64,000 nucleotides of DNA from Candidatus Omnitrophota bacterium (lineage in GTDB: Bacteria; Omnitrophota; Gorgyraeia; Pluralincolimonadales; Pluralincolimonadaceae), in assembly GCA_003141835.1 (NCBI GenBank), contig PLNR01000005.1, forward strand, positions 126,289 through 190,288, read 5' to 3'. The position numbers and the translations under genes are program-made. Shown one piece after another: positions 17,569-46,602 of the stretch. Below the pieces are notes generated by a model. The model made no database searches. It was not told where the DNA came from and worked only from the letters and a program-made list of their open reading frames with translations. Each line of letters starts with the position of its first letter. The first letter of the stretch is position 1.

Positions 17569-18441
17569 ATGGGACTGAAAATCTATATCGACGGTAAATT
17601 CCACGAGAGCGAGGACGCGAAGATCTCGGTCTTCGACCACGGCCTGCTTTACGGGGACGGCGTCTTCGAGGGCATCCGCACCTACGACGGGCTGATCTTC
17701 AAGATGAAGGAGCATATCGACAGGCTCTACCAGTCCGCGCACGCGATCATGCTCGAGATCCCCATGACTAAAGAGGAGATGACCGAGGCGGTCAAGAAGA
17801 CCCTGCGCGAGAACCAGATGAAGGATTCCTATATCAGGCTTATCGTCACGCGCGGCATCGGCGACCTCGGGCTCGACCCGAGGAAATGCCCGAAACCGAC
17901 CGTCATCATCATTACCGACAAGATCAAGCTCTACCACCAGGAATTATACGAGAAGGGCCTTGAGATCGTGACCATCTCGACGCAGAGGAATATCCACGAG
18001 TCTGTCAACCCGCAGATCAAGTCGCTCAATTACCTTAACAACATCCTCGCAAAGGTCGAGGCGATCAACGCGGGCGTCGAGGAGGCGGTTATGCTCAATT
18101 CCGAGGGTTATGTCGCGGAATGCACTGGCGATAATATCTTCATCGTCAAGAACGGCGCGATCTTCACTCCACCCGTCCACAGCGGTGTCCTGCGCGGCAT
18201 CACGCGCGGCGCGGTCATCGATATCGCGCACTTAAAGGAGATCCCTATCCACGAGGAGGTCATGACAAGGTACGACCTCTTTAACGCGGATGAGATGTTC
18301 CTTACCGGGACCGCGGCCGAGATCATCCCTGTCGTCAAGATGGACAGGCGCAAGATCGGCGACGGCAAGCCCGGGAAGATGACGGCGAAGCTCATAACGG
18401 AATTCCATAAGCTTACAAAGGTCGACGGCGTGAGGTTCTGA
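17569..18441 (+). CDS. ilvE: branched-chain amino acid aminotransferase (class IV PLP enzyme)
   Basis: [18 protein letters not shown]-terminal motif and class IV fold length. Confidence 0.8.
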
Positions 18442-18947
18442 TGATCTGCCAGGTCTGCGGCAAGAGCGAGGCCACGGTCGAGTTCACCGAGATAATAGAT
18501 GACGAAGTGAAACAGCTCCACCTTTGCGACGGGTGCGCGAAGGAGAAGGGCATCGAGATGGAGCAGAACTTCAGCATCTCCGACCTCCTTGCCGGGATAA
18601 GCGGCCTCGAGGAAAAACCGTCCGGCGAAGAGCTCTCCGTAAAATGCCCCAAATGCGGAATGACATTCGAGAACTTCCGGAAGATAGGCCGGCTCGGCTG
18701 CGGCGAATGTTACAGCGCGTTCAGGAAGAACCTGCTGCCGCTTTTAAAGCGCATCCACGGCTCGACCAGGCACATCGGGAAATCTCCCAAGGAGATCGAC
18801 GAGACCGACGGGAAGAAGAAGATATCCGAGGCGCAGGAATTGCGGCAAAAGCTCCAGCGCGCCATAGATATGGAAGAGTTCGAGGAGGCTGCAAGGCTCC
18901 GCGACATGATAAGGTCGCTCGAAAAGAAGGCTAAAGACAAGCCATGA
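18441..18947 (+). CDS. mcsA: protein-arginine kinase activator McsA (zinc-finger plus UVR domain)
   Basis: Four CxxC pairs and a C-terminal UVR motif (EEFEEAARLRDMIRSLE); directly upstream of mcsB. Confidence 0.75.
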   Translation: MICQVCGKSEATVEFTEIIDDEVKQLHLCDGCAKEKGIEMEQNFSISDLLAGISGLEEKPSGEELSVKCPKCGMTFENFRKIGRLGCGECYSAFRKNLLPLLKRIHGSTRHIGKSPKEIDETDGKKKISEAQELRQKLQRAIDMEEFEEAARLRDMIRSLEKKAKDKP

Positions 18948-19993
18948 CCTTAGGCGAGCTTTGGGACCAGACAGGCGAATGGCTTAAGGGTGCCGGCCCG
19001 GACCCTGATATAGTCATGTCCTCGCGAGTTAGGCTGGCCAGGAACCTGGCCAAGTACCCTTTCCCGCACTGGGCGCCGGCCGAGCAGCTCGAGGGCGTCA
19101 TTTCGGATTTTGAGGGCGCCTATAAAAAGGCGGATTACTTTAAAGGGGCCTTATTCTTAAGGATCGACGCGCTCGACAGCATAGAGAAACAGATGCTGAT
19201 CGAGAGGCATCTCATAAGCAGGGAGCACATAGCCAATCCCGAGCATAAAGCGGTCCTCATAAGCGAACGCGAGATAATAAGCATCATGGTCAACGAGGAG
19301 GACCACCTGCGCATACAGGTCCTCCAGTCGGGCCTGAACCTGCACGACACATGGAAGCTCGCCGACAAAATAGACGAGGAGCTGGAACAGAACCTCGAAT
19401 TTGCGGTCTCATCGGATCTGGGTTACCTGACATGCTGCCCGACTAACGTCGGGACCGGGTTGAGGGCTTCGTGCATGGCCCATCTGCCTGCGCTGGTCAT
19501 GACGAAGCAGGCCGGCAGGATCATACAGGCGATAAGCAAACTTGGCATGACCGCCCGCGGCTTATTCGGCGAGGGGACCGAGGCATACGGGAATTTTTTC
19601 CAGATATCGAACCAGGTCACTCTCGGGCATTCGGAAGAGGAGATAGTCGATAACCTCGAGCGGATAATGAAACAGATAATAGAGCAGGAGAACGCAGCCA
19701 GGAACTCGGTATTCGCGAACCAGAGGCTGCTTTTGGAAGACAGGATTTCCCGGTCGCTGGCCGAACTGAAGAGCGCGAAACTCATAAGCAGCGAGGAAGC
19801 GCTGAACCTGCTTTCCGTGATAAGGCTTGGCGCGGACCTTGGGGTGATAAAGGGCCTGGACCGCAGGATGTTAAACGATCTTTTCATACAGATACAACCC
19901 GCCCATCTCCAGAAGAAAGAAGGCAAGCGCCTGTCTGCCGAGGAGAGGGATGTGGTGCGCGCGGAGTTCATATCAAAAAAATTCAATATATAG
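18944..19993 (+). CDS. mcsB: protein arginine kinase McsB (ATP:guanido phosphotransferase)
   Basis: CPTNVGTGLRAS guanidino-kinase active-site motif. Confidence 0.85.
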   Translation: MTLGELWDQTGEWLKGAGPDPDIVMSSRVRLARNLAKYPFPHWAPAEQLEGVISDFEGAYKKADYFKGALFLRIDALDSIEKQMLIERHLISREHIANPEHKAVLISEREIISIMVNEEDHLRIQVLQSGLNLHDTWKLADKIDEELEQNLEFAVSSDLGYLTCCPTNVGTGLRASCMAHLPALVMTKQAGRIIQAISKLGMTARGLFGEGTEAYGNFFQISNQVTLGHSEEEIVDNLERIMKQIIEQENAARNSVFANQRLLLEDRISRSLAELKSAKLISSEEALNLLSVIRLGADLGVIKGLDRRMLNDLFIQIQPAHLQKKEGKRLSAEERDVVRAEFISKKFNI

Positions 19994-20018
19994 GCCTTAT
20001 TCTTGAGGAGGACAACTC

Positions 20019-22463
20019 ATGAACATGTTTTCAAGGTTTACCGAAAGGGCGAGGAAGGTCATAATCCTCGCGAAGGAAGAAGCCAAGAGGTTTAACCACG
20101 ATTACATAGGGACAGAGCATATACTGCTGGGGCTGATAAAAGAAGGCGAAGGCGTGGCCGCCGCCGTGTTGCAGAATCTCGGCCTGAGCCTCGAGGCGAT
20201 ACGCCTCGAAGTGGAAAAGATCGTCCAGCCCGGCCCGCCTACGGTCGTCTCCGGGGATATCCCGTTCACCCCGAAAGCGAAGAAGGTCATCGAGCTCGCG
20301 ACAGACGAAGCCAGGAACCTCGGGCATAATTATATCGGCACCGAACACCTGCTCCTCGGCCTAATACGCGAGGGCGAGGGTGTGGCCAGCCAGGTCCTGA
20401 CCAACTTAGGGCTGGACTTGAACAGGGTCAGGCAGGAGGTCATGTCGCTTTTAGGTTCTGCCGCCCCGGGTTTCACGCAGCAGCAGGCGCAGGCGAAGAC
20501 CAAGACCCCCTCGCTGGACGCATTCGGCAGGGACCTGACGACGCTTGCCCGCGACGGGAAGCTCGACCCGGTCATCGGGCGCAAGGACGAGATAGAGCGC
20601 GTCATCCAGATACTCTCCCGCAGGACGAAAAATAACCCGGTGCTCCTCGGCGAAGCAGGCGTCGGCAAGACCGCGATAGTCGAAGGCCTGGCGCAGAAGA
20701 TCATAAAAGGCGATATCCCCGAGATACTGCGCGATAAGAGGGTGATAATCCTCGATCTCGCGATGATGGTGGCTGGCACGAAATACAGGGGGCAGTTCGA
20801 GGAGCGCATAAAGGCGGTAATGGACGAGATAAAACGTTCCGAGAATATAATCATATTTATCGACGAACTGCACACGCTGGTCGGGGCAGGCGGCGCCGAA
20901 GGGGCGATAGACGCATCCAACATCCTGAAACCGGCGTTATCGCGCGGGGAGATACAATGCATCGGCGCGACGACCCTCGATGAATTCAGGAAACACATAG
21001 AGAAAGACGCTGCGCTGGAGCGCAGGTTCCAGACGATCATGGTCGAGCCGCCGAGCGTCGACGAGACGATAGAGATATTGAAGGGCTTGAGGGATAAATA
21101 CGAGGCTCACCACAAGGTGAAATTCACCGACGAGGCGTTAGTGGCCGCGGCGAAGCTTTCCGACCAGTATATATCCGGCCGTTACCTGCCTGATAAGGCG
21201 ATAGATCTCATAGACGAAGCGGGCTCCCGCGCGCGCCTGAGCGTGATGACCACTCCTCCTGACATCAAGGAAGTCGAGAAGGAGATGGACCAGGTACGCA
21301 AGGAGAAAGAGGCCGCGGTAAAAGGCCAGGATTTCGAGAAAGCGGCGGGCCTGCGCGATACGGAACGCGAGTTGAAAGGCCGGCTCGAGAAGGGCCGGAA
21401 GGAATGGTCGAAATCAAAGGCCGAGGCGTACCCGCAGGTGGGTGAGGAGGAGATCGCCGAGATAACCGCGAAATGGACGGGCATCCCGATCGTAAAGCTC
21501 GAGGAAAAAGAAAGCGTAAAACTCCTCAAGATGGAAGAAGAGCTCCATTCGCGCGTCATCGGGCAGGACGAGGCGATAAATGCGATAGCCAACGCAGTCA
21601 GGCGTTCGCGCGCCGGCTTGAAGGACCCGAAGAGGCCGATAGGCTCGTTCGTATTCCTCGGGCCGACCGGCGTCGGCAAGACCCTCCTTGCAAAGGCGCT
21701 CGCCGGGTTCATGTTCGGAGACGAGGACGCGATAATACAGGTCGACATGTCCGAATATATGGAAAAATTCAATGTCTCGAGGCTCGTCGGAGCTCCCCCC
21801 GGTTACGTTGGCTATGAAGAGGGTGGCCAGCTTACCGAGAAGGTCAGGCGCCGCCCGTATTCGGTCGTCCTGCTCGACGAGATCGAGAAGGCGCATCCGG
21901 ACGTATTCAATATACTTTTACAGGTCCTCGAGGAGGGCCGGCTTACCGATTCTTTCGGGAGGCGCGTCGATTTCAAGAACACGATACTCATCATGACCTC
22001 AAACCTCGGCGCCGAGATGTTCAAGAAACAGGGCTCACTAGGGTTCAAGTCCGAGAAGGAAGAGGTGACCTACCAGACGATGAAGACGAAACTCCTCGAC
22101 GAGGTCAAGAGGACATTCAAACCCGAATTTCTCAACAGGGTAGACGATATAATAGTCTTCAAGCCGCTTACCAAGGACGACCTTTATAAGATCGTGGAAC
22201 TGGAGATCGCCGAGGTGAAGAAAAGGCTCAAAGACCAACACGGCATAACCTCAGAGCTCAATAAAGCGGCTATAGATTTCCTGATAGAAAAAGGGTTCGA
22301 TCCCGTATACGGCGCGAGGCCGATAAAGAGGACGATACAGAGGTTCGTCGAGGATCCCCTGGCCGAGGAGATAATCTCCGGCAGGCTGCATAAGGGAAAG
22401 TCCGTCAAGGTAGGCGCGAAAGTAGACCATCTGATTTTTGAGCAAGTCCCGTTAGGGACCTAA
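20019..22463 (+). CDS. clpC: ATP-dependent Clp protease ATP-binding subunit ClpC
   Basis: Duplicated Clp-N repeats, two AAA+ modules ([23 protein letters not shown]) and a UVR-like middle region. Confidence 0.9.
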
Positions 22464-22489
22464 CTTGAAAAACCGGAGGCGGGGCTGAT

Positions 22490-24277
22490 TTGAGACACAG
22501 ACCGAGGCCGGCGCTGGTCATCCTTGGGTTGACGGCGCTGGTCGTGCTCATATTCATAGACCTGCAAGGCAATTATTTTTTAAAGGAATTCAAGACGAAG
22601 TCCCTCGCCGTAATGAGGGAGAAGATAGGCGTCGACGGCGAGATAGGCAGCGTCGAGGGCGGGGTGTTCAGGGGCATCATCCTCAAGGACGTCAAGCTTT
22701 ACGGCGCGCTTCCCTCGCAGGCCAAAAAGGTCTTCTTCTCTTCGGCGGCCATCGACCTTAATTACCGGTTGTGGGACCTGGCCTTCGGAAAGTACGGCAA
22801 GCTCGACAAGATAACTTTTGTATCGCCCAAGGTATACTTTTTCGAGGCGGGTCACAACCCGCCGAAAATCCCGAAGGTCTTCGAGCCGGCGTGGAAAGAG
22901 ATAACCGTATCGATAAGGGACGGTTCTTTTTATAACTCCCAGGGCGCGCCGGTCATCACGGAAGTGAACGGTAATTTCAAGGTGGGCGAACACGGCATAG
23001 AATCGCAGAACGTGAACGCCTATATCCTGGGGCAGAGGTTTGCGGGAAGGGGCAGCGTCGGTTTCCCGGTAGACCGGTCGGCGGTAAAGATGGAAGGCTC
23101 GATAAAGGGCCAGGGCTATACGCTGAGGGTACAGCTTGAAGGCGTTCTCGACAAAATATCCGTGCGCGGCTCTTTTGACATATTCGATAAGCTGAACCTG
23201 AATTTTGCGGGCAATATCGCCAAGTCCGAAGGGACGCTTTCTTTCAATGATTTTAAGTTCGGCCCGAAAGCGATAGTGAACGCGGTCCTCCAGACGGCTG
23301 ACAAGGGTTTCTGCATAAACCTGTATCCGGAAGACGTGAGCGGGAACGCTACCGCGCTGGGAGAGGTGAGCAGGTTCTGCATCACAGGGGATTTCGCGAA
23401 GCTCCCATATTTCACCCTGACGATAAACGCCAACCACCTCAAGGCGATGGGATTCGACCTGCTCTCGAATTATTACATGAGCGGAAAGCTTAATTATGAC
23501 GCGAATAACAGGCTTGAGTCGGTGACCGGCGACTTCAGCACTTCGGGCTCGGTGATAAATTACGACCCGGTGAGGGAGATAAAGGGCGCGTACGAGTTCA
23601 AGGACGGCGTGATAAAGCTGACCGGCGTCAATTATGGCGATGTCGTTTACGCAAACGGCACTATCGGCATCGCGGGCAAGAACGATCTCGACCTCCATTT
23701 TAAATTTAAAGGCGCCCAGCTCGGCGGCCTCACCGACCTCGCTATGGAGAAGGGGGCGGTGTCCGGGCTCGTCTTCGGAGACATGGACATCCACGGCGGA
23801 GTCGGCAAGGAAGCCAGCATAGCCGGCCAGCTCGAATTCCAGAACGGCAACATAAGCACGGTGCGCTACAATTCCGCGAAGATAACATTGAAGGGCAAGA
23901 GTTCTGCCCTTGAATTTATCGATTCAAAAGTCTATACTGGTGATCAGGTGCTTATGCTTGAGGGCAAGCTGGATCTGCGGGATATCGGCACTCCGCGGAT
24001 CTTCCGCAACCTCCTGATAAAGGCCGACCAGAACACGGTCGTGTGGGCGGGCGAGAGTACGATGAAGGCGCCGGCCGGAGGGGATTACGCGGCCGGGGCG
24101 GGCGCGAACGAACAATTCAAGGTCAACCTGAAGACTTACGAGTCCCAGCAGGGAAACCAGGTGCCGCGGCAGGATACGATGGATGCGGAATCCAAGCTTG
24201 CGAACCAGGCGGGCACGAAATTGAAGATGAAAGAGAACGAGGATTTCTTCGGGGTCGAGCACAAGGTGAGGTTCTAA
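22490..24277 (+). CDS. membrane-anchored beta-rich protein, possible AsmA/TamB-like lipid-transport family
   Basis: Single N-terminal TM (ALVILGLTALVVLIFI) then about 550 aa of repetitive beta-strand-like sequence. TTG start; located immediately upstream of mlaEFD. Confidence 0.45.
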   Translation: MRHRPRPALVILGLTALVVLIFIDLQGNYFLKEFKTKSLAVMREKIGVDGEIGSVEGGVFRGIILKDVKLYGALPSQAKKVFFSSAAIDLNYRLWDLAFGKYGKLDKITFVSPKVYFFEAGHNPPKIPKVFEPAWKEITVSIRDGSFYNSQGAPVITEVNGNFKVGEHGIESQNVNAYILGQRFAGRGSVGFPVDRSAVKMEGSIKGQGYTLRVQLEGVLDKISVRGSFDIFDKLNLNFAGNIAKSEGTLSFNDFKFGPKAIVNAVLQTADKGFCINLYPEDVSGNATALGEVSRFCITGDFAKLPYFTLTINANHLKAMGFDLLSNYYMSGKLNYDANNRLESVTGDFSTSGSVINYDPVREIKGAYEFKDGVIKLTGVNYGDVVYANGTIGIAGKNDLDLHFKFKGAQLGGLTDLAMEKGAVSGLVFGDMDIHGGVGKEASIAGQLEFQNGNISTVRYNSAKITLKGKSSALEFIDSKVYTGDQVLMLEGKLDLRDIGTPRIFRNLLIKADQNTVVWAGESTMKAPAGGDYAAGAGANEQFKVNLKTYESQQGNQVPRQDTMDAESKLANQAGTKLKMKENEDFFGVEHKVRF

Positions 24278-24281
24278 CGAT

Positions 24282-25067
24282 ATGAACGGTTGGATAACGA
24301 CGCTGGGCGAGAGGTTCCTTAATTTTATCCGTTACGCCGGAGGGGTATCCGTCCTCTTCGTGCGGACCATATTCTGGGTATTTGTTCCGCCGCTTAAACG
24401 CAGGCAGATCCTCGACCAGATGGTCAAGATCGGCGTCGACAGCCTGCCCATAGTTTTCCTTACCAGCCTCTTTACCGGCATGGTCCTCGCCCTGCAGAGC
24501 GCTTACCAGATGCAGAAGATGGAGGCGAAGCTCTATATCGCGAGCCTCGTCGCGCTCTCGATAACCAGGGAGCTCGGGCCTGTATTGACCGCGCTTGTGG
24601 TTGCGGGCCGGATCGGCGCCTCGATAGCCGCCGAACTCGGAACGATGAAGGTGACCGAGCAGATAGACGCGCTTGAAACCCTGGCGACGAACCCGATAAA
24701 ATATCTCGTAGTGCCCAGGTTTATCGCGCTCTTTTTCATGCTGCCGCTGCTGACTATATACGCCGACATCGTCGGCATATTCGGCGGGTACATGATCGGC
24801 GTCTGGAGGCTGAATATACTCAGTAACCTTTATTGGGACATGACTTGGAACCCGCTTCACATCAAAGATATCGTCACCGGCATCATCAAGGCCTTCGCTT
24901 TCGGCGTCATAATATGCATAGTGGCCTGTTACGAGGGGATGAGGGTCGAAGGGGGCGCCGAGGGAGTCGGAGCGGCGACGACTAAGGCGGTCGTCATCGC
25001 GTTCATACTCATAATCGCGGCTGACTGCCTCTTTACCGCGTTGTTCTATTTTGGGTTTGCATTCTAA
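24282..25067 (+). CDS. mlaE: phospholipid ABC transporter permease MlaE
   Basis: YrbE/MlaE-type permease topology and size; followed by mlaF and mlaD. Confidence 0.8.
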   Translation: MNGWITTLGERFLNFIRYAGGVSVLFVRTIFWVFVPPLKRRQILDQMVKIGVDSLPIVFLTSLFTGMVLALQSAYQMQKMEAKLYIASLVALSITRELGPVLTALVVAGRIGASIAAELGTMKVTEQIDALETLATNPIKYLVVPRFIALFFMLPLLTIYADIVGIFGGYMIGVWRLNILSNLYWDMTWNPLHIKDIVTGIIKAFAFGVIICIVACYEGMRVEGGAEGVGAATTKAVVIAFILIIAADCLFTALFYFGFAF

Positions 25068-25069
25068 AT

Positions 25070-25819
25070 ATGATAGAATTGATCAATGTAAGCAAATCGT
25101 TCGAGGACCACATGGTCCTCGACAACATGAACCTCACGATCCGCGATGGGGAAACTATCGTGATCATAGGCCGTTCCGGCATCGGTAAGAGCGTCACGCT
25201 CAAGCATATAATCGGCCTGATGAAACCCGATTCCGGACAGGTCATAGTCGACGGATTGGATATAACCAGGCTCGACGCGAAGGGCCTTAACGAACTCAGG
25301 CTGAAATTCGGCATGCTATTCCAGGGAGCGGCGCTATTCGATTCGCTCAACGTGCGCGATAACGTGGCGTTCAATCTTATTGAACATACCAAGATGGACG
25401 ATAAGGCGATAGACAAGAGGGTGGCCGAATGCCTGGAGCTCGTCGGCCTGCGGGGCATAGAATACCTGAGCCCGGCGGAGCTTTCCGGAGGCATGAGGAA
25501 ACGCGTCGGCCTGGCCAGGGCCATATGCATGAACCCGAAGATAATACTTTACGATGAGCCGACGACCGGCGTAGACCCGATAATGGCCGACGCGGTCAAC
25601 GACCTCATCAAGGATTTGCAGTCGAAGCTTAAGACCACCGCAGTGGCGGTCACACATGACATGACCTCGGCCTATAAGATAGCGGACAGGATCGCGATGC
25701 TCTATAAGGGAAAGATCGTCGAGATCGGGACCCCTGACGAGATAAAGAACACCAAGAACCCTGTCGTAAAACAGTTCATAACCGGCGCGGCCACAGGGCC
25801 GATAACGGAGGACTCATGA
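25070..25819 (+). CDS. mlaF: phospholipid ABC transporter ATP-binding protein MlaF
   Basis: Walker A GRSGIGKS, signature LSGGMRKRVGLARA, Walker B ILYDEPTTG. Confidence 0.8.
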   Translation: MIELINVSKSFEDHMVLDNMNLTIRDGETIVIIGRSGIGKSVTLKHIIGLMKPDSGQVIVDGLDITRLDAKGLNELRLKFGMLFQGAALFDSLNVRDNVAFNLIEHTKMDDKAIDKRVAECLELVGLRGIEYLSPAELSGGMRKRVGLARAICMNPKIILYDEPTTGVDPIMADAVNDLIKDLQSKLKTTAVAVTHDMTSAYKIADRIAMLYKGKIVEIGTPDEIKNTKNPVVKQFITGAATGPITEDS

Positions 25820-25844
25820 TGATACTTTTTCCGAGGAGGCTCAA

Positions 25845-26555
25845 ATGAGAAGGATGGATCTGGAGTTCAAGGTCGGGATTTTCGTGGCGATAGGCATTGC
25901 TATCCTGATGTCCATGGTCTTTTCGCTGAAGGAGCTTAAGCACGCCCAGCAGAACTATTCGATAAGGGTGCGCTTTAATTTCGCCAACGGCATCGAGGTC
26001 GCCGCGCCGGTAAGGGTGGCCGGCGTCCAGGTCGGAGAGGTGAAGAATATCGCGATCGTGGAGAACAAGGAAGCCAACAAGATGGCCGTCGACCTGTTTG
26101 TCGGGCTCGACAAGAAGGTAAAGGTCGAGAAAGACGCCGAAGCGTTCATAAATACGCTTGGGCTTATCGGGGAAAAATACGTGGAGATCCTCCCCGGCAC
26201 CCCGGGAGGCGAGGTATTGAAACCCGGCGAAACGCTGGTCGGCAGGGAGTCGGTGCCGATAGAGAAACTGACCGAGAAGGGCTACGAGATAGCGAGCGGG
26301 CTCGGCGACACTATAAAACATTTTAATAAACTGGTAGGGGACCCGGAGACGCAGGCCGCGTTCAAGGCGACGATGCTCGACATCAGGAAATTCATGGCGT
26401 CGGCGAACACGGTCATGGACAATGTCAAATCCGGACAAGGGACGATCGGCAAACTTTTTATGGACGAGGGCCTGTATAACGAGCTGGACGCCTTCGTAAA
26501 GGACCTTAAGGCTCACCCGTGGAAACTGCTTTCGAAGCCCAGGGGAGAAAAGTAA
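25845..26555 (+). CDS. mlaD: MCE-domain protein MlaD
   Basis: N-terminal TM anchor followed by an MCE domain. Confidence 0.75.
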   Translation: MRRMDLEFKVGIFVAIGIAILMSMVFSLKELKHAQQNYSIRVRFNFANGIEVAAPVRVAGVQVGEVKNIAIVENKEANKMAVDLFVGLDKKVKVEKDAEAFINTLGLIGEKYVEILPGTPGGEVLKPGETLVGRESVPIEKLTEKGYEIASGLGDTIKHFNKLVGDPETQAAFKATMLDIRKFMASANTVMDNVKSGQGTIGKLFMDEGLYNELDAFVKDLKAHPWKLLSKPRGEK

Positions 26556-26587
26556 CAGAATGATAAAGGAAAGGAGGTGAGATAAAA

Positions 26588-27580: not shown

Positions 27581-27590
27581 GAGGCCTGAT

Positions 27591-29467: not shown

Positions 29468-29472
29468 ATTTC

Positions 29473-30906
29473 ATGCCCATCCTCATACATAACACCCTGA
29501 CGCGCAAGCTCGAAGAATTCAAGCCCATCAAAGCCAGCGAGGCCCGCATGTACGTCTGCGGCGTCACCGTCTATGACGAATGCCACCTCGGCCACGCCAG
29601 GAGCGGTTTTATATTTGATTTCATCAGGAATTACCTCGGGTACCGCGGATATAAAGTGACATTCGTAAAAAATATCACGGATGTCGACGATAAGATCATA
29701 AACAGGGCGCGCGCCGAGGTCGCCGACAAAAATTCGCGGCTTCACGGCATCGACTTGAATGAAGCCGTAAAAGAGATCGCCCGGCGCTATACGGAGAGTT
29801 TTTACGGGGATATGGCGTCCCTCGGCATCGCGAAGGCCGACAAGGAACCGAAGGCGACCGAGCACATAAAAGAGATAATTAAGATGATAGCCGCCCTTAT
29901 TGATAAAGGTTATGCTTATGCGGCCGGCGGGGATGTTTATTTCGACGTGAGGAAGTTCGGCGGTTACGGGAAACTCTCTAACCAGGACAAGGACCAGATG
30001 CTGGAAGGCACCAGGTCTGAGACATCTGAAAAGAAAAGAGACGCCCTCGATTTCGCTTTGTGGAAGTCGGCGAAGGAGAACGAGCCGGAATGGGATTCCC
30101 CGTGGGGCAAGGGCAGGCCGGGCTGGCACATCGAGTGCTCGGCGATGTCGACCAAATACCTCGGAGATAATTTCGATATACACGGCGGCGGGCGCGACCT
30201 CATATTCCCGCACCATGAGAACGAGATCGCGCAGTCCGAGTGCGCTACCGGCAAACCGTTCGCGAATTACTGGATACATAACGGGCTTTTGACGATAATC
30301 GGCGAGAAGATGTCGAAGTCGCTCGGCAACTACGTCTCTATAAAGGCCGTGCTTGCGCGTTACCCCTCCGACGTCCTTAAGATATTCTTCCTCGGCGCGC
30401 ATTATTCCCACCCGATAGATTTTACGTGGGAGAAGATGGAAGCGGCGAAGAGCGGCTACGAAAGGTTCCTCGTGTTGTTGGATAAGATAGACAGGCGCCT
30501 GGAGGGAAAGGGGCAGGTCAAGGCAAAGAATAACGCGGAGATAGGCGGTTTAAAGGCCGCGTTCGAGGCCGGCATGGACGATAATTTCAATACCCCGGCT
30601 GCGCTTGGGGCGCTATTCGACCTGGCCACCGCCGGCAACAAAATACTTGATAGAAATGAAGATGCTTCTGTGATAAAATACCTACAAAGCACCCTTTTGG
30701 AGCTGGCCGGGGTCCTCGGCCTTAGGTTTAAGAACGCGTCAAACGGCATGTCGGACAATGAGATACAAAAACTGGTCGACGCCCGCATCGACGCGAAAAA
30801 GAAGAGAGATTTCAAGGAGTCCGACAGGATAAGGGAAGAGCTGGGCAAGAACGGCATCATCCTGGAAGACGATAAAGGGAAGACTTACTGGAGGCGCAAG
30901 ATATAG
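29473..30906 (+). CDS. cysS: cysteinyl-tRNA synthetase
   Basis: Class I HLGH and KMSKSLGN motifs; Cys-binding C...C pattern. Confidence 0.9.
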
Positions 30907-31842
30907 ATGGCACTTAAGGCACGCGCAAAAGAGACGCTCGCGGCGTATTTATTCCTCTCGCCGAACCTAATCGGGTTCATGGTATTTACTTTCCTGCCTG
31001 TCTTCGCGTCACTGCTGTTGAGCTTTTACAAATGGGATATAATAACATGGCCGCCCAAGTTCGTCGGCATGCATAATTTCGTGGACCTTCTCGGTGTCCA
31101 TTCCGAGGCCGGCAAACTCGTCGTCAACGACCCCAAATTCTGGCAGTACCTCTGGAACACCGTATTCCTGATGTTCTCGATCCCGATATGCATGATGGCG
31201 TCCCTGTTCCTTGCGACCGCGCTCAACCGCAAGATAAAAGGCGAGTCGCTCTTCAGGACTCTCTTTTTCCTGCCTTCAATATGCCCGGGAGTCGCGGTAG
31301 CGATCCTCTGGCTGTGGATATTCAACCCCGATTTCGGGATGCTCAATAACATAATCTACTGGATCGGGAAGCTCCTCGGCTTCAACATACCCGGGCCGTT
31401 ATGGCTCAATTCCCCGGGATGGGCGAAGCCGTCGTTGATGCTCATGAACTTCTGGATCGCCATCGGCGGAATGAACATGATCCTTTACCTCGCCGCCCTG
31501 CAGGGGATACCGAGGGATTTCTACGAAGCGGCCGAGATAGACGGCGCGAACGGCTGGCAGAAATTCTGGGCGATAACCTGGCCCCAGATAAGCCCGACGA
31601 CATTCTTCATTTTTTTGATGAGCATAATCGGCGGGTTCCAGGGCGGTTTCATGCAGGCGTATATAATGACAGGCGGCGGGCCGGGCGGTGCGACGACCAC
31701 GATCGAATATTACATCTTCAATAACCTTTACACCTGGCAGAACGTCGGTTACGCCGCGGCTATCGCGTGGTTCCTCTTCATCGTGATATTCGCCGTCTCC
31801 CTCATCAATTGGAGATTCGGCGGAAAACTTGTCCATTACTAA
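30907..31842 (+). CDS. carbohydrate ABC transporter permease (MalF/UgpA family)
   Basis: 6-TM permease with an EAA-like loop (EAAEIDGANGWQKFWAITWPQISP). Confidence 0.7.
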   Translation: MALKARAKETLAAYLFLSPNLIGFMVFTFLPVFASLLLSFYKWDIITWPPKFVGMHNFVDLLGVHSEAGKLVVNDPKFWQYLWNTVFLMFSIPICMMASLFLATALNRKIKGESLFRTLFFLPSICPGVAVAILWLWIFNPDFGMLNNIIYWIGKLLGFNIPGPLWLNSPGWAKPSLMLMNFWIAIGGMNMILYLAALQGIPRDFYEAAEIDGANGWQKFWAITWPQISPTTFFIFLMSIIGGFQGGFMQAYIMTGGGPGGATTTIEYYIFNNLYTWQNVGYAAAIAWFLFIVIFAVSLINWRFGGKLVHY

Positions 31843-31854
31843 GGAACGGATAAT

Positions 31855-32727
31855 ATGGCAGAAAAGAATATAAGGCATAAGAGCGCGGCGGGTTCCAAGG
31901 AAAAGGGGCTGCAGTTTTTCGCTTATTCAGTCCTTATCATAGGCGCCGTCTCGATGATATTGCCTTTCCTGTGGATGACGACGACCTCGCTGAAGACGCT
32001 CGACGCGATATTTATCCAGCCAAAGAACTGGATACAGATGTTCGTTCCCACGATGTTCAAATGGGAGAACTACGCCGAAGCTTTCAAGGTAGTGCCGTTC
32101 GCGAAGTTCTACATGAACTCCATACTGGTAGGCCTCGCCGTCACGGTCGGGCAGGTCTTCACAAGCTCGATGGCGGCTTACGCCTTCTCGCGCTTGACTT
32201 TCCCGGGCAGGGACAAGCTATTCTTCGCGTACCTTGCGACGATGATGATCCCGGGGTCGGTCACGATGATACCCGTCTACGTCTTAATGAGGCTCTTCGG
32301 TTGGGTCGATACTTATAAAGCGCTTATAATCCCTATGATATTCTCCGCTTACGGGACGTTCATGCTCAGGCAGTTCTTCATGACATTGCCGAAGGACCTT
32401 GAGGACGCGGCGAAGATAGACGGCTGCGGATTCTTCCGCATATTCTGGACGATAATATTGCCACTCTCGAAACCGGCCCTGGCGACGCTGACGGTCTTTA
32501 CGTTCATGGGTAACTGGGGGAATTTCATGTGGCCCCTCCTGGTCACCAACAGCGACAGCATGAGGACTCTGCCGATAGGGCTGGAATCGTTCAAGACGCA
32601 ATACTCGACCGACTGGCATCTCCTGATGGCCGGCTCGGTCATGGCTATGCTGCCCATCGTCATAATCTTCATCTTCACCCAGCGTTACTTCGTCGAGTCG
32701 ATCAAGCTCAGCGGCGTAAAAGGATAG
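31855..32727 (+). CDS. carbohydrate ABC transporter permease (MalG/UgpE family)
   Basis: EAA motif EDAAKIDGCGFFRIFWTIILPLSKPAL. Confidence 0.75.
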   Translation: MAEKNIRHKSAAGSKEKGLQFFAYSVLIIGAVSMILPFLWMTTTSLKTLDAIFIQPKNWIQMFVPTMFKWENYAEAFKVVPFAKFYMNSILVGLAVTVGQVFTSSMAAYAFSRLTFPGRDKLFFAYLATMMIPGSVTMIPVYVLMRLFGWVDTYKALIIPMIFSAYGTFMLRQFFMTLPKDLEDAAKIDGCGFFRIFWTIILPLSKPALATLTVFTFMGNWGNFMWPLLVTNSDSMRTLPIGLESFKTQYSTDWHLLMAGSVMAMLPIVIIFIFTQRYFVESIKLSGVKG

Positions 32728-32730
32728 CAT

Positions 32731-33348
32731 ATGTCGCGCGGAAGGTTCATCACTATCGAGGGCCCGGAAGGGTCGGGAAAATCCACCCATTCACGCCTGC
32801 TTTGCGAATTCCTCAGGGGAAGCGGCCATAAGGTGCTCCATACGCGCGAGCCCGGAGGCACAAGATTAGGCGAGGCGATAAGACAGGTCCTGCTCGACAA
32901 GAAAAATAAGAATATGTCCGATGGATGCGAACTTTTCCTTTTCCTCGCGGCGCGCGCCCAAGTAGTCTCCGAAGTGATAATGCCGGCTTTGAAGAAGGGA
33001 TATATAGTTGTCTGCGACAGGTTCCATGACGCGACTGTCGCGTACCAGGGTTACGGCGCAGGCCTCGACCTGAAATTGATAGATTCGGCGGGTAAGCTCG
33101 CGACGGGCGGGCTTAAACCCGACCTGACTATATTGCTCGACGTTGAGACGTCGGCCGGGCTGAAACGCGGCGGCATAAAGGACAGGATGGAAGTCAAGCC
33201 TGTCCGTTTCCACAAGAAGGTCAGGGACGGTTATTTTAAGATAGCGAAGAAAGAACCGCGCCGGATAAAGGTCATCAATACCGGCGGCGTGCCTATCGCC
33301 GCGGTACAGGATAAAATAAGAAGAGCCGTATCGCATGTCGTTCAATAA
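32731..33348 (+). CDS. tmk: thymidylate kinase
   Basis: P-loop FITIEGPEGSGKST and a DRF motif. Confidence 0.85.
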   Translation: MSRGRFITIEGPEGSGKSTHSRLLCEFLRGSGHKVLHTREPGGTRLGEAIRQVLLDKKNKNMSDGCELFLFLAARAQVVSEVIMPALKKGYIVVCDRFHDATVAYQGYGAGLDLKLIDSAGKLATGGLKPDLTILLDVETSAGLKRGGIKDRMEVKPVRFHKKVRDGYFKIAKKEPRRIKVINTGGVPIAAVQDKIRRAVSHVVQ

Positions 33349-34300
33349 AGTCATCGGGCAGGAACTCGCCGCAGGTCTCTTGAAAAAAGCGATAGAGGAG
33401 AAACGCCTGGCGCACGCGTATCTCTTTATCGGCCCGGAAGGTGTGGGCAAGTCGCTGCTGGCGAAGGTCTTCGCCAAGGCGCTCAATTGCGAAAAAGGCG
33501 GCGCGGAACCCTGCGGGGAATGCGTATCCTGCAGGAAGATAGAGGCAAATATCCATCCCGACGCGGTCGTCCTCTCCCCGGAAGGGAAATCGTCGCAGAT
33601 AGGCATAGACGCGATCCGCAAGATAGAAGGGGCGATGTCGCTGAAGCCTTACGAGGGGCGGACCAAGGTCTTCACTATCGACGGCGCGGATAAGATGACA
33701 GAGGAAGCCGCGAACTCGCTGCTGAAGACCCTCGAGGAGCCGCCGAAAGACACGGTACTGGTGCTACTGGCCTCTAACATGTTCAAACTGCAGCCGACGA
33801 TAGTATCGCGGTGCCAGAAGATCCTCTTCCATCCGCTGGGCGAGCGCGCGATAATGAAAGAGCTCATCGAAAGATTCGGGCTCGACGAGAAGAAGGCCGC
33901 CTGTATATCGAGATTTTCCGAAGGCCGTCTCGGCAGGGCGATAGAGGTCCTCGAAGGCGAGGCGCTTGCTAAGAGGAATAAAATAGTTGACGAATTTTTG
34001 ACGCCGAAGCAGTTCGGCTATGAGGATACGTGGTTATACGGCGAGCCGCGCGATAAGATAAACGAGACGCTCAACGCCTTGGCCGTCTATTTCAGGGACC
34101 TTTTGGTCTTCAGCCTCTCAAAGGACCAGGGCCTGCTCGTAAACCTCGACAGGGCTGCCGATATTGCCCGTGATGCGGCAAAATACCCGGCCGAAAGGCT
34201 CGAGAGGATAATCGAGATAATTGCCGACACGCAGGAGCAGATAAAGAGGAACGCCAACATAAAGATCGCGCTCTCCTGCATGCGGCTTAACATAACTTAG
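33335..34300 (+). CDS. holB: DNA polymerase III delta-prime subunit
   Basis: AAA+-like P-loop GPEGVGKS and zinc-module cysteines (CEKGGAEPCGECVSC). Confidence 0.8.
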   Translation: MSFNKVIGQELAAGLLKKAIEEKRLAHAYLFIGPEGVGKSLLAKVFAKALNCEKGGAEPCGECVSCRKIEANIHPDAVVLSPEGKSSQIGIDAIRKIEGAMSLKPYEGRTKVFTIDGADKMTEEAANSLLKTLEEPPKDTVLVLLASNMFKLQPTIVSRCQKILFHPLGERAIMKELIERFGLDEKKAACISRFSEGRLGRAIEVLEGEALAKRNKIVDEFLTPKQFGYEDTWLYGEPRDKINETLNALAVYFRDLLVFSLSKDQGLLVNLDRAADIARDAAKYPAERLERIIEIIADTQEQIKRNANIKIALSCMRLNIT

Positions 34301-34311
34301 GGGAAATAAAA

Positions 34312-35133
34312 ATGTTCGAAGTTGTGCAGATAAGGTTAAGGGAAGGCGGCAAGACGTCGTTTTTTGAGCCCGGCAACACGAAACCGAAGACGGGCGAAAC
34401 GGTCATAGTCGAGGCGGACAGGGGCGTCGACTACGGCGATGTCATATCCGATATAGAATCCGTTTCCGAGATAGCGGGCGACGAGCCGATCCGCAAGGTC
34501 TTAAGGATAGCCACTGCCGGCGACCTCGACCAGATAAAGAAGAACCGCGAGAAGACGAAAGAGGCTTTCACCGCCTGCCAGAAGAAGATAATCGAGCACG
34601 GGCTGAAGATGAAACTCATCGACGCCGAATACACCTTCGACAGGTCGAAGCTTTTGTTTTATTTCACGGCAGAAGGGCGCGTCGATTTCAGGGAACTCGT
34701 AAAAGACCTCGCGCGGATATTCAAGGCGCGCATAGAGCTCAAGCAAATAGGCGTCCGAGACGAAGCGCGGCTGTTGGGCGGGTTCGGCCCGTGCGGCAAG
34801 TGCCTCTGCTGCGCGACCTTCCTCAAGGATTTCGAGCCGGTCACGATAAAGATGGCCAAGGAGCAGAACCTCCCGCTCAACCCGGCGAAGATCTCAGGCG
34901 TATGCGGCAGGCTGATGTGCTGCCTAGGCTACGAGCATAAATTATACGTCGAACTGTTGAAGGGCCTGCCGAAGGAAGGCGAAAAGGTCAACCTTGAAGG
35001 ATGCGCCGGCAAGGTCGTCTCGGTGAACGCGCTCAAGCGCTCGATAACCGTCGATTGCGGCGAGGGAAAGTTCGTCGAGCTCGGCTGCAAATGCCCCAAG
35101 GGCTGCCAAATGCACCTCAACCAGAGAAAATGA
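34312..35133 (+). CDS. ricT: PSP1 C-terminal domain protein (RicT/YaaT-like)
   Basis: N-terminal PSP1-like region and C-terminal cysteine clusters; position after holB as in Bacillus. Confidence 0.7.
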   Translation: MFEVVQIRLREGGKTSFFEPGNTKPKTGETVIVEADRGVDYGDVISDIESVSEIAGDEPIRKVLRIATAGDLDQIKKNREKTKEAFTACQKKIIEHGLKMKLIDAEYTFDRSKLLFYFTAEGRVDFRELVKDLARIFKARIELKQIGVRDEARLLGGFGPCGKCLCCATFLKDFEPVTIKMAKEQNLPLNPAKISGVCGRLMCCLGYEHKLYVELLKGLPKEGEKVNLEGCAGKVVSVNALKRSITVDCGEGKFVELGCKCPKGCQMHLNQRK

Positions 35134-36692
35134 AAAAGTTTTACGTCACCACAGCCATATATTACGTAAACGCGAAACCGCATATCGGCCACTGTTCTGA
35201 AAGCGCCTCCGCAGACGCGTTGGCGCGCTACCACCGGCTCAAAGGAGAAGACGTATTTTTCCTGACCGGCACGGATGAGCACGGGCAGAAAGTCGCCAAG
35301 GCCGCGCTTGAGGCTGGCAAGACTCCGAAGGAGTTCGTCGATTCGGTCGTGAAGCCTTCCCTCGAATTGTGGAAACTCCTCTCCATATCCTATGATGATT
35401 TCATAAGGACTACCGACGAGCGCCACGCCGAGGTCGTCAAATTCCTCCTCGATGACCTGCATAAAAAAGGCGAACTTTACGAATCGGAATACAAGGGATG
35501 GTATTGCAGCTCATGCGAGGCGTTCTACCCGAAGAACCAGCTTGAGGGCAGCACCTGCCCGGAATGCAAGCGCCAGCTCGAGGAGATCTCGGAGACGAAC
35601 TGGTTCTTCAAACTGTCGAAATACCAGGATTGGCTTGTAAAATATATAAATGACCATCCCGATTTCATAAAACCCGCCTCGAGGAGGAACGAGATATTGA
35701 GCTTCCTCTCCCAGCCGCTCCAGGACCTCTGCATCTCGCGCCCGAGATCGCGGCTCGAATGGGGCATCCCCATGCCTTTTTCGAAGGACCATGTCACCTA
35801 CGTCTGGTTCGACGCCCTCGTTAATTACATATCCGGCATAGGCTACCTTAATGATAAGGAAAAATTCAACAAGTTCTGGCCCGCGGACGTCCATATAGTC
35901 GGCAAGGACATAATAAGGTTCCACACGGTCTACTGGCCGATAATGCTGCATGCGGCAGGCATCGAGCTGCCGAAGACGGTCTTCGCCCACGGTTTCTGGC
36001 TTATCGGCAAGGACGCCGAGAAGATGTCCAAATCGAAGGGAAACGTGGTCGACCCGTTCGAGCTCATAAACAAATACGGCCCTGACCCGCTAAGATATTT
36101 CCTTTTGAGGGAAGTGACGTACGGCCTCGACGGGGTATATTCCGAGGCCGCGCTCGTAAGCAGGCTCAATACCGACCTTGCCAATGACATCGGCAACCTC
36201 CTTAACAGGACGCTGACGATGATAGAGAAATATTATGGAGGCAGGGTCCCTGCTCCGGCAGGGACGTCGCTGCGCTCCGAAGATCCCGGCGATGATGAAT
36301 TGAAGGCGCTCGCGAAGGGCCTTCCGGGCAGGATAGACGCGGCCATGGCAGAGCTGGATTTCTCCGGTGCTTTGGCTTCGATATGGGAGCTGATCAACAA
36401 GGCGAATAAATATATAGAGGTGCAGGCGCCGTGGACGCTCGACAAGCAGGGCAAGAAAGACCGTCTCAGCGACGTGATATATAATCTGGCCGAGATACTG
36501 AGGATAGTCACTATAGCGGTCTCGCCGTTCATCCCCGCTTCAGCGGAGAAGATGTGGGAGCAAGCCGGCATTACAGAACCGCTTTCCAAAATGCGTTTTT
36601 CCGATATAGAAAAGTGGGGCCTCGTCAAGCCGGGGACGCAGATAAAGAAAGGCGCCCCGCTCTTCCCACGCATCGACACAAAGGCGAAATGA
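35130..36692 (+). CDS. metG: methionyl-tRNA synthetase
   Basis: HIGH (HIGHC), KMSKS, and zinc knuckles CSSCEAF/CPECK. The ATG at 35130 overlaps the ricT stop. Confidence 0.9.
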   Translation: MKKFYVTTAIYYVNAKPHIGHCSESASADALARYHRLKGEDVFFLTGTDEHGQKVAKAALEAGKTPKEFVDSVVKPSLELWKLLSISYDDFIRTTDERHAEVVKFLLDDLHKKGELYESEYKGWYCSSCEAFYPKNQLEGSTCPECKRQLEEISETNWFFKLSKYQDWLVKYINDHPDFIKPASRRNEILSFLSQPLQDLCISRPRSRLEWGIPMPFSKDHVTYVWFDALVNYISGIGYLNDKEKFNKFWPADVHIVGKDIIRFHTVYWPIMLHAAGIELPKTVFAHGFWLIGKDAEKMSKSKGNVVDPFELINKYGPDPLRYFLLREVTYGLDGVYSEAALVSRLNTDLANDIGNLLNRTLTMIEKYYGGRVPAPAGTSLRSEDPGDDELKALAKGLPGRIDAAMAELDFSGALASIWELINKANKYIEVQAPWTLDKQGKKDRLSDVIYNLAEILRIVTIAVSPFIPASAEKMWEQAGITEPLSKMRFSDIEKWGLVKPGTQIKKGAPLFPRIDTKAK

Positions 36693-38068
36693 TGAGGCTC
36701 GTCGATACCCATTGCCACCTCGATTTCCCTGAGTTCGATCCCGACAGGGAAGAAGTAATAAGCAGGGCAAAGGCAGTCGGCATAGAATACATCATAAACG
36801 TCGCGAGCAGCCTCGAGGGCTCAAAAAAGTCGGTCGCGCTCGCGAATAAATATGACTGCGTATACGCCTCTGTCGGCATCCACCCTCACGACGCGAAAGA
36901 ACTCAACGAATCCTCGTTTTCCGGGATAAGGGCCCTCGCGAAAGATAAAAAGGTGGTAGCCATAGGCGAAGTCGGCCTCGATTATTACAGGAACCTCTCG
37001 CCGGCCGGCCTGCAGCAGGCCGCATTCAAGAAATTCCTCCACCTCGCCCAAGATACGGGCCTTCCGCTCATAATCCACTGCCGAGAGGCGCGCGAAGACC
37101 TCCTGAAGATAATAAAAAAAGAGATCTCCGCCCCGGTAAAGGGTGTCATCCACTGTTTTCCCGCCGATGAGGAACTCCTCAATAACGTCCTCGACCTCGG
37201 GATGTACGTCTCGTTCACCTGCAACCTCACTTTCAAGAATGCCGCCAAAGCGCGCGAAATGGTAAAAGCCCTTGTCCCGATGGACAGGATACTGGTCGAG
37301 ACCGACGCGCCGTACCTGGCGCCGGAAGGGATGCGCGGCAAGAGGAACGAGCCGTCCTATATGGTAAAAGTTGTAGAACAGATAGCGGAACTGAAAGGGA
37401 TCACCCCGGAAGACGTGGCCAGGGCGACGACAGCCAACTGCGCGCGGCTCTTCGGAGTCGGCGGCGCCCCGGAATCGGCGATAACGTATAAAATAAGGGA
37501 CTCGCTGTACATAAACCTCACCAACAGGTGCACCAGCGACTGCGAATTCTGCGTCACCAAGACGACTGATTTCGTGATGGGGCATAACCTGCGCCTTAAA
37601 GGCGAACCGTCGGCAAAAGAGATAATAGAGGAGGTCGGCGACCCGAAGAGATACGATGAGATAGTGTTCTGCGGATACGGCGAACCCACTTTACGGCTCG
37701 ATTGCTTGGTCGAGGTCGCGAAGGCCCTGAAAAAGAAGGGCGCCAAGGTCCGACTTACGACGAACGGCCACGGCAACCTAATAAATAAAAGGCGCATTGT
37801 CGACGACCTCGCCGGGCTCATTGACCGGGTAAGCGTGAGCCTTAACGCCCCGGATAAAGAGGCCTATAATAAGGTCTGCAGGCCGGCGTTCGGCCCTGAG
37901 ACTTTCAGCGAAGTGAAGAAGTTCATCTCCGAGTGCAGGGAGAGACTGCCTGAGGTCGAAGTCACCTGCGTCGATTACGAAGGCGTGGACATGAAAGAAT
38001 GCGAGAGGGTCGCGACGGAAGAGTTAAAGGTCAAATTCAGGCCGAGGAGGCTCAACGTTGTTGGATAA
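36689..38068 (+). CDS. TatD-family metal-dependent hydrolase fused to a C-terminal radical SAM domain
   Basis: TatD N-terminus (MMRLVDTHCHLDFPEF, later HCF) continues without a stop into a CTSDCEFC (Cx3Cx2C) radical SAM domain. Confidence 0.75.
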   Translation: MMRLVDTHCHLDFPEFDPDREEVISRAKAVGIEYIINVASSLEGSKKSVALANKYDCVYASVGIHPHDAKELNESSFSGIRALAKDKKVVAIGEVGLDYYRNLSPAGLQQAAFKKFLHLAQDTGLPLIIHCREAREDLLKIIKKEISAPVKGVIHCFPADEELLNNVLDLGMYVSFTCNLTFKNAAKAREMVKALVPMDRILVETDAPYLAPEGMRGKRNEPSYMVKVVEQIAELKGITPEDVARATTANCARLFGVGGAPESAITYKIRDSLYINLTNRCTSDCEFCVTKTTDFVMGHNLRLKGEPSAKEIIEEVGDPKRYDEIVFCGYGEPTLRLDCLVEVAKALKKKGAKVRLTTNGHGNLINKRRIVDDLAGLIDRVSVSLNAPDKEAYNKVCRPAFGPETFSEVKKFISECRERLPEVEVTCVDYEGVDMKECERVATEELKVKFRPRRLNVVG

Positions 38069-46582: not shown

Positions 46583-46602
46583 TTTTTCTCCCCAAAAGTA
46601 CA

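Follow-up and report, generated by a model that had tools for sequence, protein, structure and literature searches.

The 64-kb stretch of DNA analysed here (contig PLNR01000005.1 of a Candidatus Omnitrophota assembly, hereafter the window) carries mcsA, mcsB and clpC, the genes of a phospho-arginine (pArg) tagging and degradation system, within a long array that recalls the gene order of Bacillus subtilis and is accompanied by genes for outer-membrane biogenesis. Our results make it probable that this array is an old neighbourhood kept across Omnitrophota and inherited vertically within each phylum, with a pArg module devoid of the repressor CtsR, and that it does not reflect kinship with Firmicutes. 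The window would represent a housekeeping stretch of the Omnitrophota chromosome, with the tightly packed, co-directional array from lysS to tatD that is typical of the phylum. In this array, the series mcsA-mcsB-clpC-(radA)-yacL-ispD-ispF-cysE-cysS would be the old neighbourhood, inherited vertically by Bacillota and by Omnitrophota, the diderm version interleaving lipoprotein (lol) and lipid-transport (mla) genes. The organism is a Candidatus Omnitrophota, that is, a diderm of the Planctomycetota-Verrucomicrobiota-Chlamydiota (PVC) group and neither a Firmicute nor a Negativicute, and the locus is an ordinary one, typical of its phylum.

Conservation of the array across phyla

Synteny was followed by tblastn of the window proteins against fetched genome loci and metagenome contigs. 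Twenty genome loci of the Omnitrophota clade, whose McsB identities go down to 48%, and at least 15 metagenome contigs show the array, the consensus order being (secA-lnt)-lysS-lolCE-lolD-ilvE-mcsA-mcsB-clpC-(X595)-mlaE-mlaF-mlaD-radA-yacL-ispD-ispF-cysE-cysS, where X595 is a membrane-anchored protein of 595 residues. In two loci (L010, L086) the consensus runs on into tmk-holB-PSP1, with cysS, tmk, holB and PSP1 adjacent in L086. Upstream of mcsB, lysS is found in 14 of the 16 assessable Omnitrophota loci, and the mlaEFD trio follows clpC in 14 of 15. The downstream genes yacL, ispD and ispF are present in 10/11, 9/10 and 9/10 Omnitrophota loci, in 7/10, 8/10 and 7/10 Bacillota loci, and in 0–1 of 17 loci from Verrucomicrobiota; the yacL-type protein is 45–57% identical to its positional counterpart in Bacillota loci, where the order ctsR-mcsA-mcsB-clpC-radA-(disA)-yacL-ispD-ispF-gltX-cysE-cysS is seen (L073, L076, L094, L132 and others).

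The likeness to the Bacillota operon covers the order and orientation of mcsA, mcsB, clpC, yacL, ispD, ispF, cysE and cysS as well as the key residues of McsB, McsA and ClpC, and it extends to radA, which 10 Omnitrophota genome loci (L005, L008, L010–L015, L022, L026) carry ahead of yacL, after either mlaD or clpC. In contrast to that operon, the window has no ctsR, CtsR box, disA, gltX or radA, it carries lolCE-lolD-ilvE directly upstream of mcsA and X595-mlaEFD between clpC and yacL, and its cysS is followed by the tmk block. Since most Omnitrophota relatives still carry radA, its absence from this site in the sub-clade of the window (L003/L006, L004, L007, L009) is best read as a loss, and X595 and two ABC permease genes as gains of the same sub-clade. 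The permease pair, ugpA/ugpE-like, is present in L087 and missing from L086 and L010, in which tmk follows cysS directly.

The earlier note on this DNA had recognised three blocks of the B. subtilis origin-proximal region in the same order and orientation. The order within the blocks holds; that of the blocks does not, as the tmk block follows cysS in the window, separated from it by the two permease genes, which the note had not mentioned. In B. subtilis, by the order of locus tags, the tmk...yabD block (BSU00280-00390) lies upstream of ctsR...cysS. The mcsA and mcsB genes of that organism are BSU_00840/00850 (PMC10128030). Furthermore, the core made of tmk, holB and a gene of the tatD family is not specific to Bacillus, because it is also present, co-directional, in Escherichia coli K-12 (tmk-holB-ycfH); unlike E. 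coli, the window shares with Bacillus the placing of ricT (PSP1) and metG after holB and before tatD, and its TatD is fused to a radical-SAM domain. This fusion, of TatD (residues 49–301) with a TatD-associated radical SAM domain (TIGR04038, residues 310–500), is a single long open reading frame (ORF) at 36692-38068.

For a random gene order, the chance of eight named genes being collinear and co-oriented within 12 gene slots is about 1e-21. Convergent assembly, whereby selection for co-expression would have grouped the same genes independently in the two phyla, is accordingly a very unlikely account: very tightly packed genomes do favour long co-directional arrays, but the functions involved (proteolysis, isoprenoid synthesis, cysteine metabolism and tRNA charging) are unrelated, and an identical order and orientation of eight to nine genes is extremely improbable.

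Beyond these two phyla the array is found in part. The gene immediately preceding mcsA is ilvE in 18/19 loci from Omnitrophota and 30/34 from Verrucomicrobiota, against 0/11 from Bacillota. The Verrucomicrobiota keep (lolD)-ilvE-mcsA-mcsB-clpC, sometimes with mlaEFD, and do not keep the downstream half; in part of them, as in the Binatia group, lolCE and lolD are upstream of mcsA. The Kuenenia locus reads mcsA-mcsB-clpC-radA. Outside the PVC group, loci of the Binatia group and unclassified ones (L023, L038, L069, L161) show lysS-lolCE-lolD-mcsA-mcsB-clpC without ilvE, and for this reason the lysS-lol-mcsAB-clpC linkage may be older than the PVC group. Among Actinobacteria, Mycobacterium tuberculosis presumably has the order lysS-lsr2-clpC1 ... 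radA-disA ... carD-ispD-ispF-cysS. Literature searches on gene order across phyla returned nothing specific.

Phylogeny and origin of the array

A scan of the McsB alignment against one genome per species matched at least 595 genomes. Among the best 80 of these matches are Omnitrophota (48–85% identity), many Verrucomicrobiota (Chthoniobacterales, Udaeobacter, Prosthecobacter, Opitutales), Planctomycetota (Isosphaeraceae, Singulisphaera, Kuenenia), Pontiella (Kiritimatiellota), Binatia and also Bacillota, the last all within 45–51% identity. The window McsB is 46–51% identical to those of Bacillota and 45–51% to those of Verrucomicrobiota. It belongs to a cluster at 90% identity or more that is named Candidatus Omnitrophota/Omnitrophica, and named matches down to 56% identity are Omnitrophota, a phylum that the NCBI taxonomy places within the PVC group; some close McsB-bearing metagenome-assembled genomes carry the submitter label 'Planctomycetia'. 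McsB has been described as a Gram-positive protein (PMC8370763, PMC11046695), one of these papers mentioning only 'some gram-negative... Proteobacteria' (PMC11046695), and our literature searches brought up no study of the protein for Omnitrophota, Planctomycetes or Verrucomicrobia. The rarity of McsAB outside Firmicutes, from which a relationship to Firmicutes-like ancestors had been argued, is thus contradicted, since the system is common in PVC phyla.

Neighbour-joining trees of McsB and ClpC, taken separately, resolve into clades at the level of phyla. In the tree of the two proteins concatenated (53 taxa, 1145 columns, 200 bootstraps), Omnitrophota including the window, Verrucomicrobiota, Planctomycetota and Bacillota are each recovered in 200/200 replicates, the PVC bipartition in 188/200, and a grouping of Omnitrophota with Bacillota in 0/200. 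The module therefore tracks organismal taxonomy, and a recent transfer from Bacillota is excluded. Of the two placements offered by the earlier note, a candidate phylum is the one that these trees uphold, and the kinship with Firmicutes is not supported.

The integrity of the contig was a concern, given that hallmark genes regarded as 'Gram-positive' and 'Gram-negative' are mixed in it and that a low-GC island lies at 46-54 kb. A chimera of Firmicute-derived and Gram-negative-derived fragments is nevertheless excluded in practice, because separate assemblies and many related genomes agree on the order: the window McsB recurs unchanged on a 443-kb ENA contig (ERZ27254250, contig k141_397642) and on a Logan contig assembled independently, the same gene order is found on the ENA, Logan and NCBI contigs, and it recurs in dozens of related genomes and contigs of other samples. 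In addition, the GC content (0.52–0.58) and the GC skew are steady over 1-46 kb, and the low-GC island falls outside 18441-38068.

Hardly any more weight can be given to a diderm Firmicute (of the Negativicutes or Halanaerobiales) with ctsR elsewhere in its genome, even though a Bacillus-like order together with outer-membrane genes might evoke one. The close homologues are all from Omnitrophota; two Halanaerobiales loci (L065, L085), in which ctsR precedes mcsA, group with Bacillota in the trees and away from the window; and the adjacency of ilvE and mcsA is a trait of PVC loci that none of the 11 Bacillota loci shares. The window also encodes Lnt and LolCE/LolD, a Lol system that Antunes et al. 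in 2016 reportedly found lacking in diderm Firmicutes. An ordinary Negativicutes genome, the other way in which the earlier note thought its reading could fail, can therefore be set aside, as the window is not from a Negativicute.

A more serious alternative is an ancient horizontal transfer, in which a block of about 10 kb from mcsA to cysS would have passed between a lineage of early Bacillota and a common ancestor of Omnitrophota, or even of the whole PVC group, the lol and mla genes being added later. It would account for a long array common to Bacillota and Omnitrophota and not found in the sampled Verrucomicrobiota or most Planctomycetota; the window McsB is about equally identical to its counterparts in Bacillota and Verrucomicrobiota, and a horizontal acquisition of mcsAB has been suggested for Chlamydia (PMC10128030). 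We consider this transfer fairly unlikely, as Omnitrophota never join Bacillota in a tree that supports the PVC bipartition, as housekeeping genes that are essential, cysS and ispDF among them, would have to be replaced, and in view of the partial arrays of Kuenenia and the Binatia group.

Vertical inheritance of a working module has, in turn, several points against it. Vertical descent within phyla is also compatible with a very ancient block transfer that preceded the diversification of the PVC group. Among the loci sampled, Verrucomicrobiota lack the radA...cysS half beside clpC, as do most Planctomycetota, so that an ancestral linkage has to assume recurrent loss in these two phyla. As to the trees, they are unrooted, based on distances and drawn from the 80 best loci, and co-transcription is deduced from gene spacing alone. 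As regards function, ClpP and a YwlE-type phosphatase are not encoded in the window, the papers found describe no arginine-kinase activity for any PVC McsB, and B. subtilis McsAB did not stimulate chlamydial ClpC (PMC10128030).

The Omnitrophota array could also be the ancestral diderm form of the Firmicute clpC-radA-yacL-ispDF-cysES region, interleaved with lolCE-lolD and mlaEFD, the Bacillus order being what remained once these genes had been deleted upon loss of the outer membrane. This is an unlikely reading, for which the sampled Bacillota give no support. The ORFs found in the clpC-radA gap of some Bacillota (enoyl reductase, glycosyltransferase, ferritin, SLH protein) are unrelated to mla genes, so that no trace of former mla genes is seen there. 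A metagenome scan for an intermediate with ctsR and mla or lol genes in one array, seeded with Halanaerobiales McsB, found none and returned no close Halanaerobiales; the two archetypes were the only arrangements seen. Should this reading be true, synteny would here offer a footprint of the 'diderm-first' view, and McsAB-ClpC phospho-arginine tagging would be an ancient bacterial degradation signal rather than a Gram-positive speciality.

The McsA, McsB and ClpC proteins

McsB passes the NCBIfam equivalog cut-off (Table 1) and aligns end to end with the B. subtilis and Geobacillus McsB structures in the PDB (E=8e-95); its Pfam records are PF00217 (ATP:guanido phosphotransferase) and PF27454 (McsB_C). 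The NEEDH motif occupies residues 117–121 and the catalytic Cys165 aligns to C167 of B. subtilis, both being invariant in the McsB alignment. The pArg receptor site is kept (S283/R335/D336/R339, corresponding to S285, R337, D338 and R341 in B. subtilis), and so is R192, the equivalent of R194, the roles of these residues being those described in previous work (PMC8370763, PMC11046695).

McsA falls below the curated cut-off of its family, yet the match is full-length. It has four CxxC pairs (C3/C6, C29/C32, C69/C72, C87/C90) and a C-terminal UVR coiled coil with the UVR motif at 131–163, in agreement with the definition of McsA as a protein with two zinc-coordinating domains and a coiled-coil/UVR domain, encoded directly upstream of mcsB (PMC11046695); in the window, mcsA overlaps mcsB by 4 nt. 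McsA is thus, on sequence grounds, a divergent orthologue.

Among PDB entries, ClpC matches full-length B. subtilis ClpC best (1110 bits, with ClpB at about 798 bits). The protein shows a double Clp_N and a UVR motif at 420–453 in the M-domain, its LGF tripeptide aligns to the VGF ClpP-docking loop of B. subtilis, and E33/E109 align to E32/E106, the pArg sites of B. subtilis ClpC (PMC12583610). As judged from these alignments, the three proteins retain the residues required for phospho-arginine tagging and recognition, and the locus shares the protein-level features that define the Bacillus McsAB-ClpC system. McsB activated by McsA would phosphorylate arginines of damaged proteins, and the N-domain of ClpC would recognise phospho-arginine and deliver the tagged proteins to ClpP, the whole working without the CtsR repressor.

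Chlamydia trachomatis offers a comparison within the PVC group. It is likewise a diderm with ClpC and McsA/McsB orthologues and without CtsR (PMC10128030), and its ClpCP degrades arginine-phosphorylated casein (PMC10128030). Its mcsAB operon is separate from clpC and flanked by tRNA genes, and horizontal acquisition was suggested by the authors (PMC10128030), whereas Omnitrophota, Verrucomicrobiota and Planctomycetota (Kuenenia) have a contiguous mcsA-mcsB-clpC that tracks the phylogeny of the phyla. Vertical inheritance is therefore an alternative to the suggested horizontal origin of the chlamydial McsAB/ClpC.

What is modestly new here is a complete CtsR-less McsAB-ClpC module conserved in diderm PVC phyla (Omnitrophota, Verrucomicrobiota, Planctomycetota, Kiritimatiellota), and the long neighbourhood, shared with Bacillota, that Omnitrophota keep with lol and mla genes interleaved. 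These proteins from an uncultured phylum are offered for testing pArg-dependent proteolysis without CtsR. From the point of view of genome annotation, a Bacillus-like order is no evidence of Firmicute ancestry, and a neighbourhood of about ten genes common to very distant phyla makes a useful synteny marker.

Absence of CtsR and expression of the module

As previously noted for this DNA, ctsR, radA, disA and gltX are missing: tblastn with Pfam-verified Bacillota proteins as queries found none of them in the window. Two Pfam-verified CtsR proteins used as queries matched neither the window nor any of the PVC loci, whereas ctsR is present in 15/16 Bacillota-clade loci of the genome set, and in these loci only. 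Neither did the window yield CtsR boxes beyond chance, with one match at three mismatches against 1.3 expected. A CtsR-controlled class III heat-shock operon was consequently ruled out at a locus without ctsR upstream and with box matches at chance level, the searches in this genome covering the 64 kb of the window.

The start codon of mcsA overlaps the stop codon of ilvE, which leaves no room for an operator and points to translational coupling of mcsA to ilvE. With neither CtsR nor room for its operator, the module is probably transcribed together with its housekeeping neighbours and not as a CtsR-controlled heat-shock operon. A near-consensus sigma-70 promoter-like site (TTGACT-17-TATAAT, 14161-14189, plus strand) is found within the 3' end of lnt, 45 nt ahead of lysS, and is preceded by a hairpin and a run of eight T at 14133-14159. 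Being a consensus match only, it is the sole strong promoter-like site in 14-34 kb, a region in which such sites are not above chance (16 vs 13.2 +/- 4.1 expected). Given this single strong site and no overall enrichment, expression of mcsAB-clpC within a long housekeeping transcript seems the better of the possibilities, and we favour it with some reserve. The site coincides with the start of the array conserved in Omnitrophota.

In one distant Omnitrophota locus (L005), an ORF of 198 residues (8878-9474) lies between ilvE and mcsA, the position of ctsR in Bacillota. It was considered as a CtsR substitute and dropped, as it encodes a predicted membrane/coiled-coil protein with no Pfam match and no similarity to CtsR.

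X595 and the lipid and lipoprotein transport genes

The earlier note had placed an AsmA-like gene and mlaEFD after clpC. The mla genes are indeed there; for X595, the supposed AsmA-like protein, the matches to YhdP and TamB stay below threshold. It has 47 homologues, every named one from Omnitrophota, and its relatives give weak matches to YhdP (13/28) and TamB (3/28), all below the Pfam gathering score. The AlphaFold2 model (mean pLDDT 69.9) shows a transmembrane helix at 7–46 and about 30 strands, with residues 523–595 as a disordered tail, and neither Foldseek (fold) nor a profile search (PDB sequences) gave a significant match in the PDB. X595 is possibly an AsmA/YhdP/TamB-like protein, a plausible but unproven assignment. 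Members of the family, of about 600 residues, are always found between clpC and mlaE (homologues in L003, L004, L009, L026, L086 and L087); in other Omnitrophota clpC directly abuts mlaE, or a divergent ORF of 500–566 residues takes that place (L007, L019).

The ABC ATPase between mlaE and mlaD is generic, scoring below the E. coli MlaF equivalog cut-off, and no MlaA, MlaB or MlaC was found in the window. A minimal MlaEFD next to AsmA/TamB-like lipid transporters, for instance in Veillonella parvula, was reportedly described by Grasekamp et al. in 2023. The window resembles such systems in having MlaE, an ABC ATPase and an MCE-domain MlaD without MlaA/B/C nearby, and in the proximity of this trio to a membrane-anchored, beta-rich protein with weak similarity to YhdP/TamB; it differs from them in that X595 has about 600 residues, against more than 1200 in TamB/YhdP, falls below every Pfam threshold and has an unmatched fold. 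As for lipoprotein release, the Lol system is encoded by one lolCE permease gene, instead of separate lolC and lolE genes, and by a lolD marginally below its cut-off.

Organization of the window

Gene identities were assigned from NCBIfam and Pfam scans of the window proteins, scored against curated cut-offs (Table 1). All the genes named in the earlier note were recovered in their places on the plus strand, and the diderm hallmarks it listed are real by profile score (BamD-like, LptE-like, Lnt, LolCE and LolD, MlaE/MlaD).

Table 1. Main genes of the window, with positions counted from its first nucleotide
Feature	Position	Strand	Evidence or remark
comEC (partial), then PilZ protein	window start, upstream of BamD-like gene
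BamD-like TPR lipoprotein and LptE-like protein	2004-3511	+	TIGR03302, 125.9 vs cut-off 81.4; PF04390, 49 vs 23
lnt, apolipoprotein N-acyltransferase	12678-14231	+	TIGR00546, 360.5 vs cut-off 132.9
lysS, first gene of the Omnitrophota-conserved array	14234-15685	+	NF001756, 657.9 bits vs cut-off 468
lolCE permease and lolD ATPase, lipoprotein release	15704-17555	+	TIGR02212, 364.3 vs 362.45; TIGR02211, 298.1 vs 307.75
ilvE, branched-chain aminotransferase	17569-18441	+	NF006185, 476 bits
mcsA, predicted activator of protein-arginine kinase	18441-18947	+	NF053706, E=1.7e-48, 164.8 bits vs cut-off 210
mcsB, predicted protein-arginine kinase	18944-19993	+	NF002194, 445.6 bits vs cut-off 385
clpC, AAA+ unfoldase	20019-22463	+	two Clp_N repeats and UVR motif
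X595, 595 residues, membrane-anchored, beta-rich	22490-24277	+	homologues in Omnitrophota only
mlaE permease, mlaF-like ABC ATPase, mlaD (MCE domain)	24282-26555	+	TIGR00056, 261 vs 212; PF02470, 69 bits
yacL-type PIN/TRAM membrane protein	26588-27580	+	Pfam PIN and TRAM
ispD, ispF, cysE, cysS	27591-30906	+	TIGR00453, TIGR00151, TIGR01172, TIGR00435, all above cut-offs
two carbohydrate-type ABC permeases, ugpA/ugpE-like	30907-32727	+	NCBIfam/Pfam scans
tmk, holB, ricT/yaaT (PSP1), metG, tatD-radical-SAM fusion	32731-38068	+	TIGR00041, TIGR00678, NF041131, NF008900 pass; TIGR00010 and TIGR04038 in one ORF
tmk	32731-33348	+

Almost all the genes are on the plus strand, and 34 co-directional ones, from prfB to a hydrolase near the low-GC island, form a train of 36.4 kb with intergenic gaps of at most 40 bp. 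Between the LptE-like gene and the array the order is holA, murJ, a short uvrC, ogt, a hydrolase, prfB, secA and lnt, leading to lysS; after position 38068 come a CPBP protease, an Fe-S protein, mtnA, thiL, tsaE, tsaB, alr, a hydrolase and the integrase-bearing island. The gene prfB (8742-9842) contains, at about 8806, the signal GGAGG...CTT TGA C of a canonical programmed +1 frameshift, and an extended -10-like sequence, TGGTATAAT, is found upstream of it at about 8700, in the sole sizeable intergenic gap before the 36-kb gene train.

An Rfam search of the whole window returned zero family matches, and no tRNA gene was found in it. The BamD-like lipoprotein (2004-2960) also has an N-terminal TPR segment of the YbgF/CpoB type (TIGR02795, residues 45–118), and directly 3' of its gene come the LptE-like gene and holA, an order that presumably corresponds to leuS-lptE-holA of E. 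coli. The uvrC gene (6213-7830) is short, with 424 residues instead of about 600 and a profile match in two stretches, and the ORF of ogt (methylated-DNA-protein-cysteine methyltransferase) overlaps and follows it. A branched-chain amino-acid cluster, ilvD-ilvB-ilvN-ilvC-leuA, then aroE, is found at 55389-62609, with ilvE apart from it, upstream of mcsA.

The GC content and skew described above have their low-GC exception at about 46-54 kb. This island (45281-54300; GC 0.40–0.44 vs about 0.54 elsewhere) starts with a minus-strand tyrosine integrase (45281-46648) and carries an XhoI-type restriction endonuclease (48180-48911) and an N6/N4 DNA methylase (48871-49854); several of its ORFs have no Pfam match and no tRNA gene is near. 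On account of the integrase and the restriction-modification system, the island is probably an integrated mobile element.

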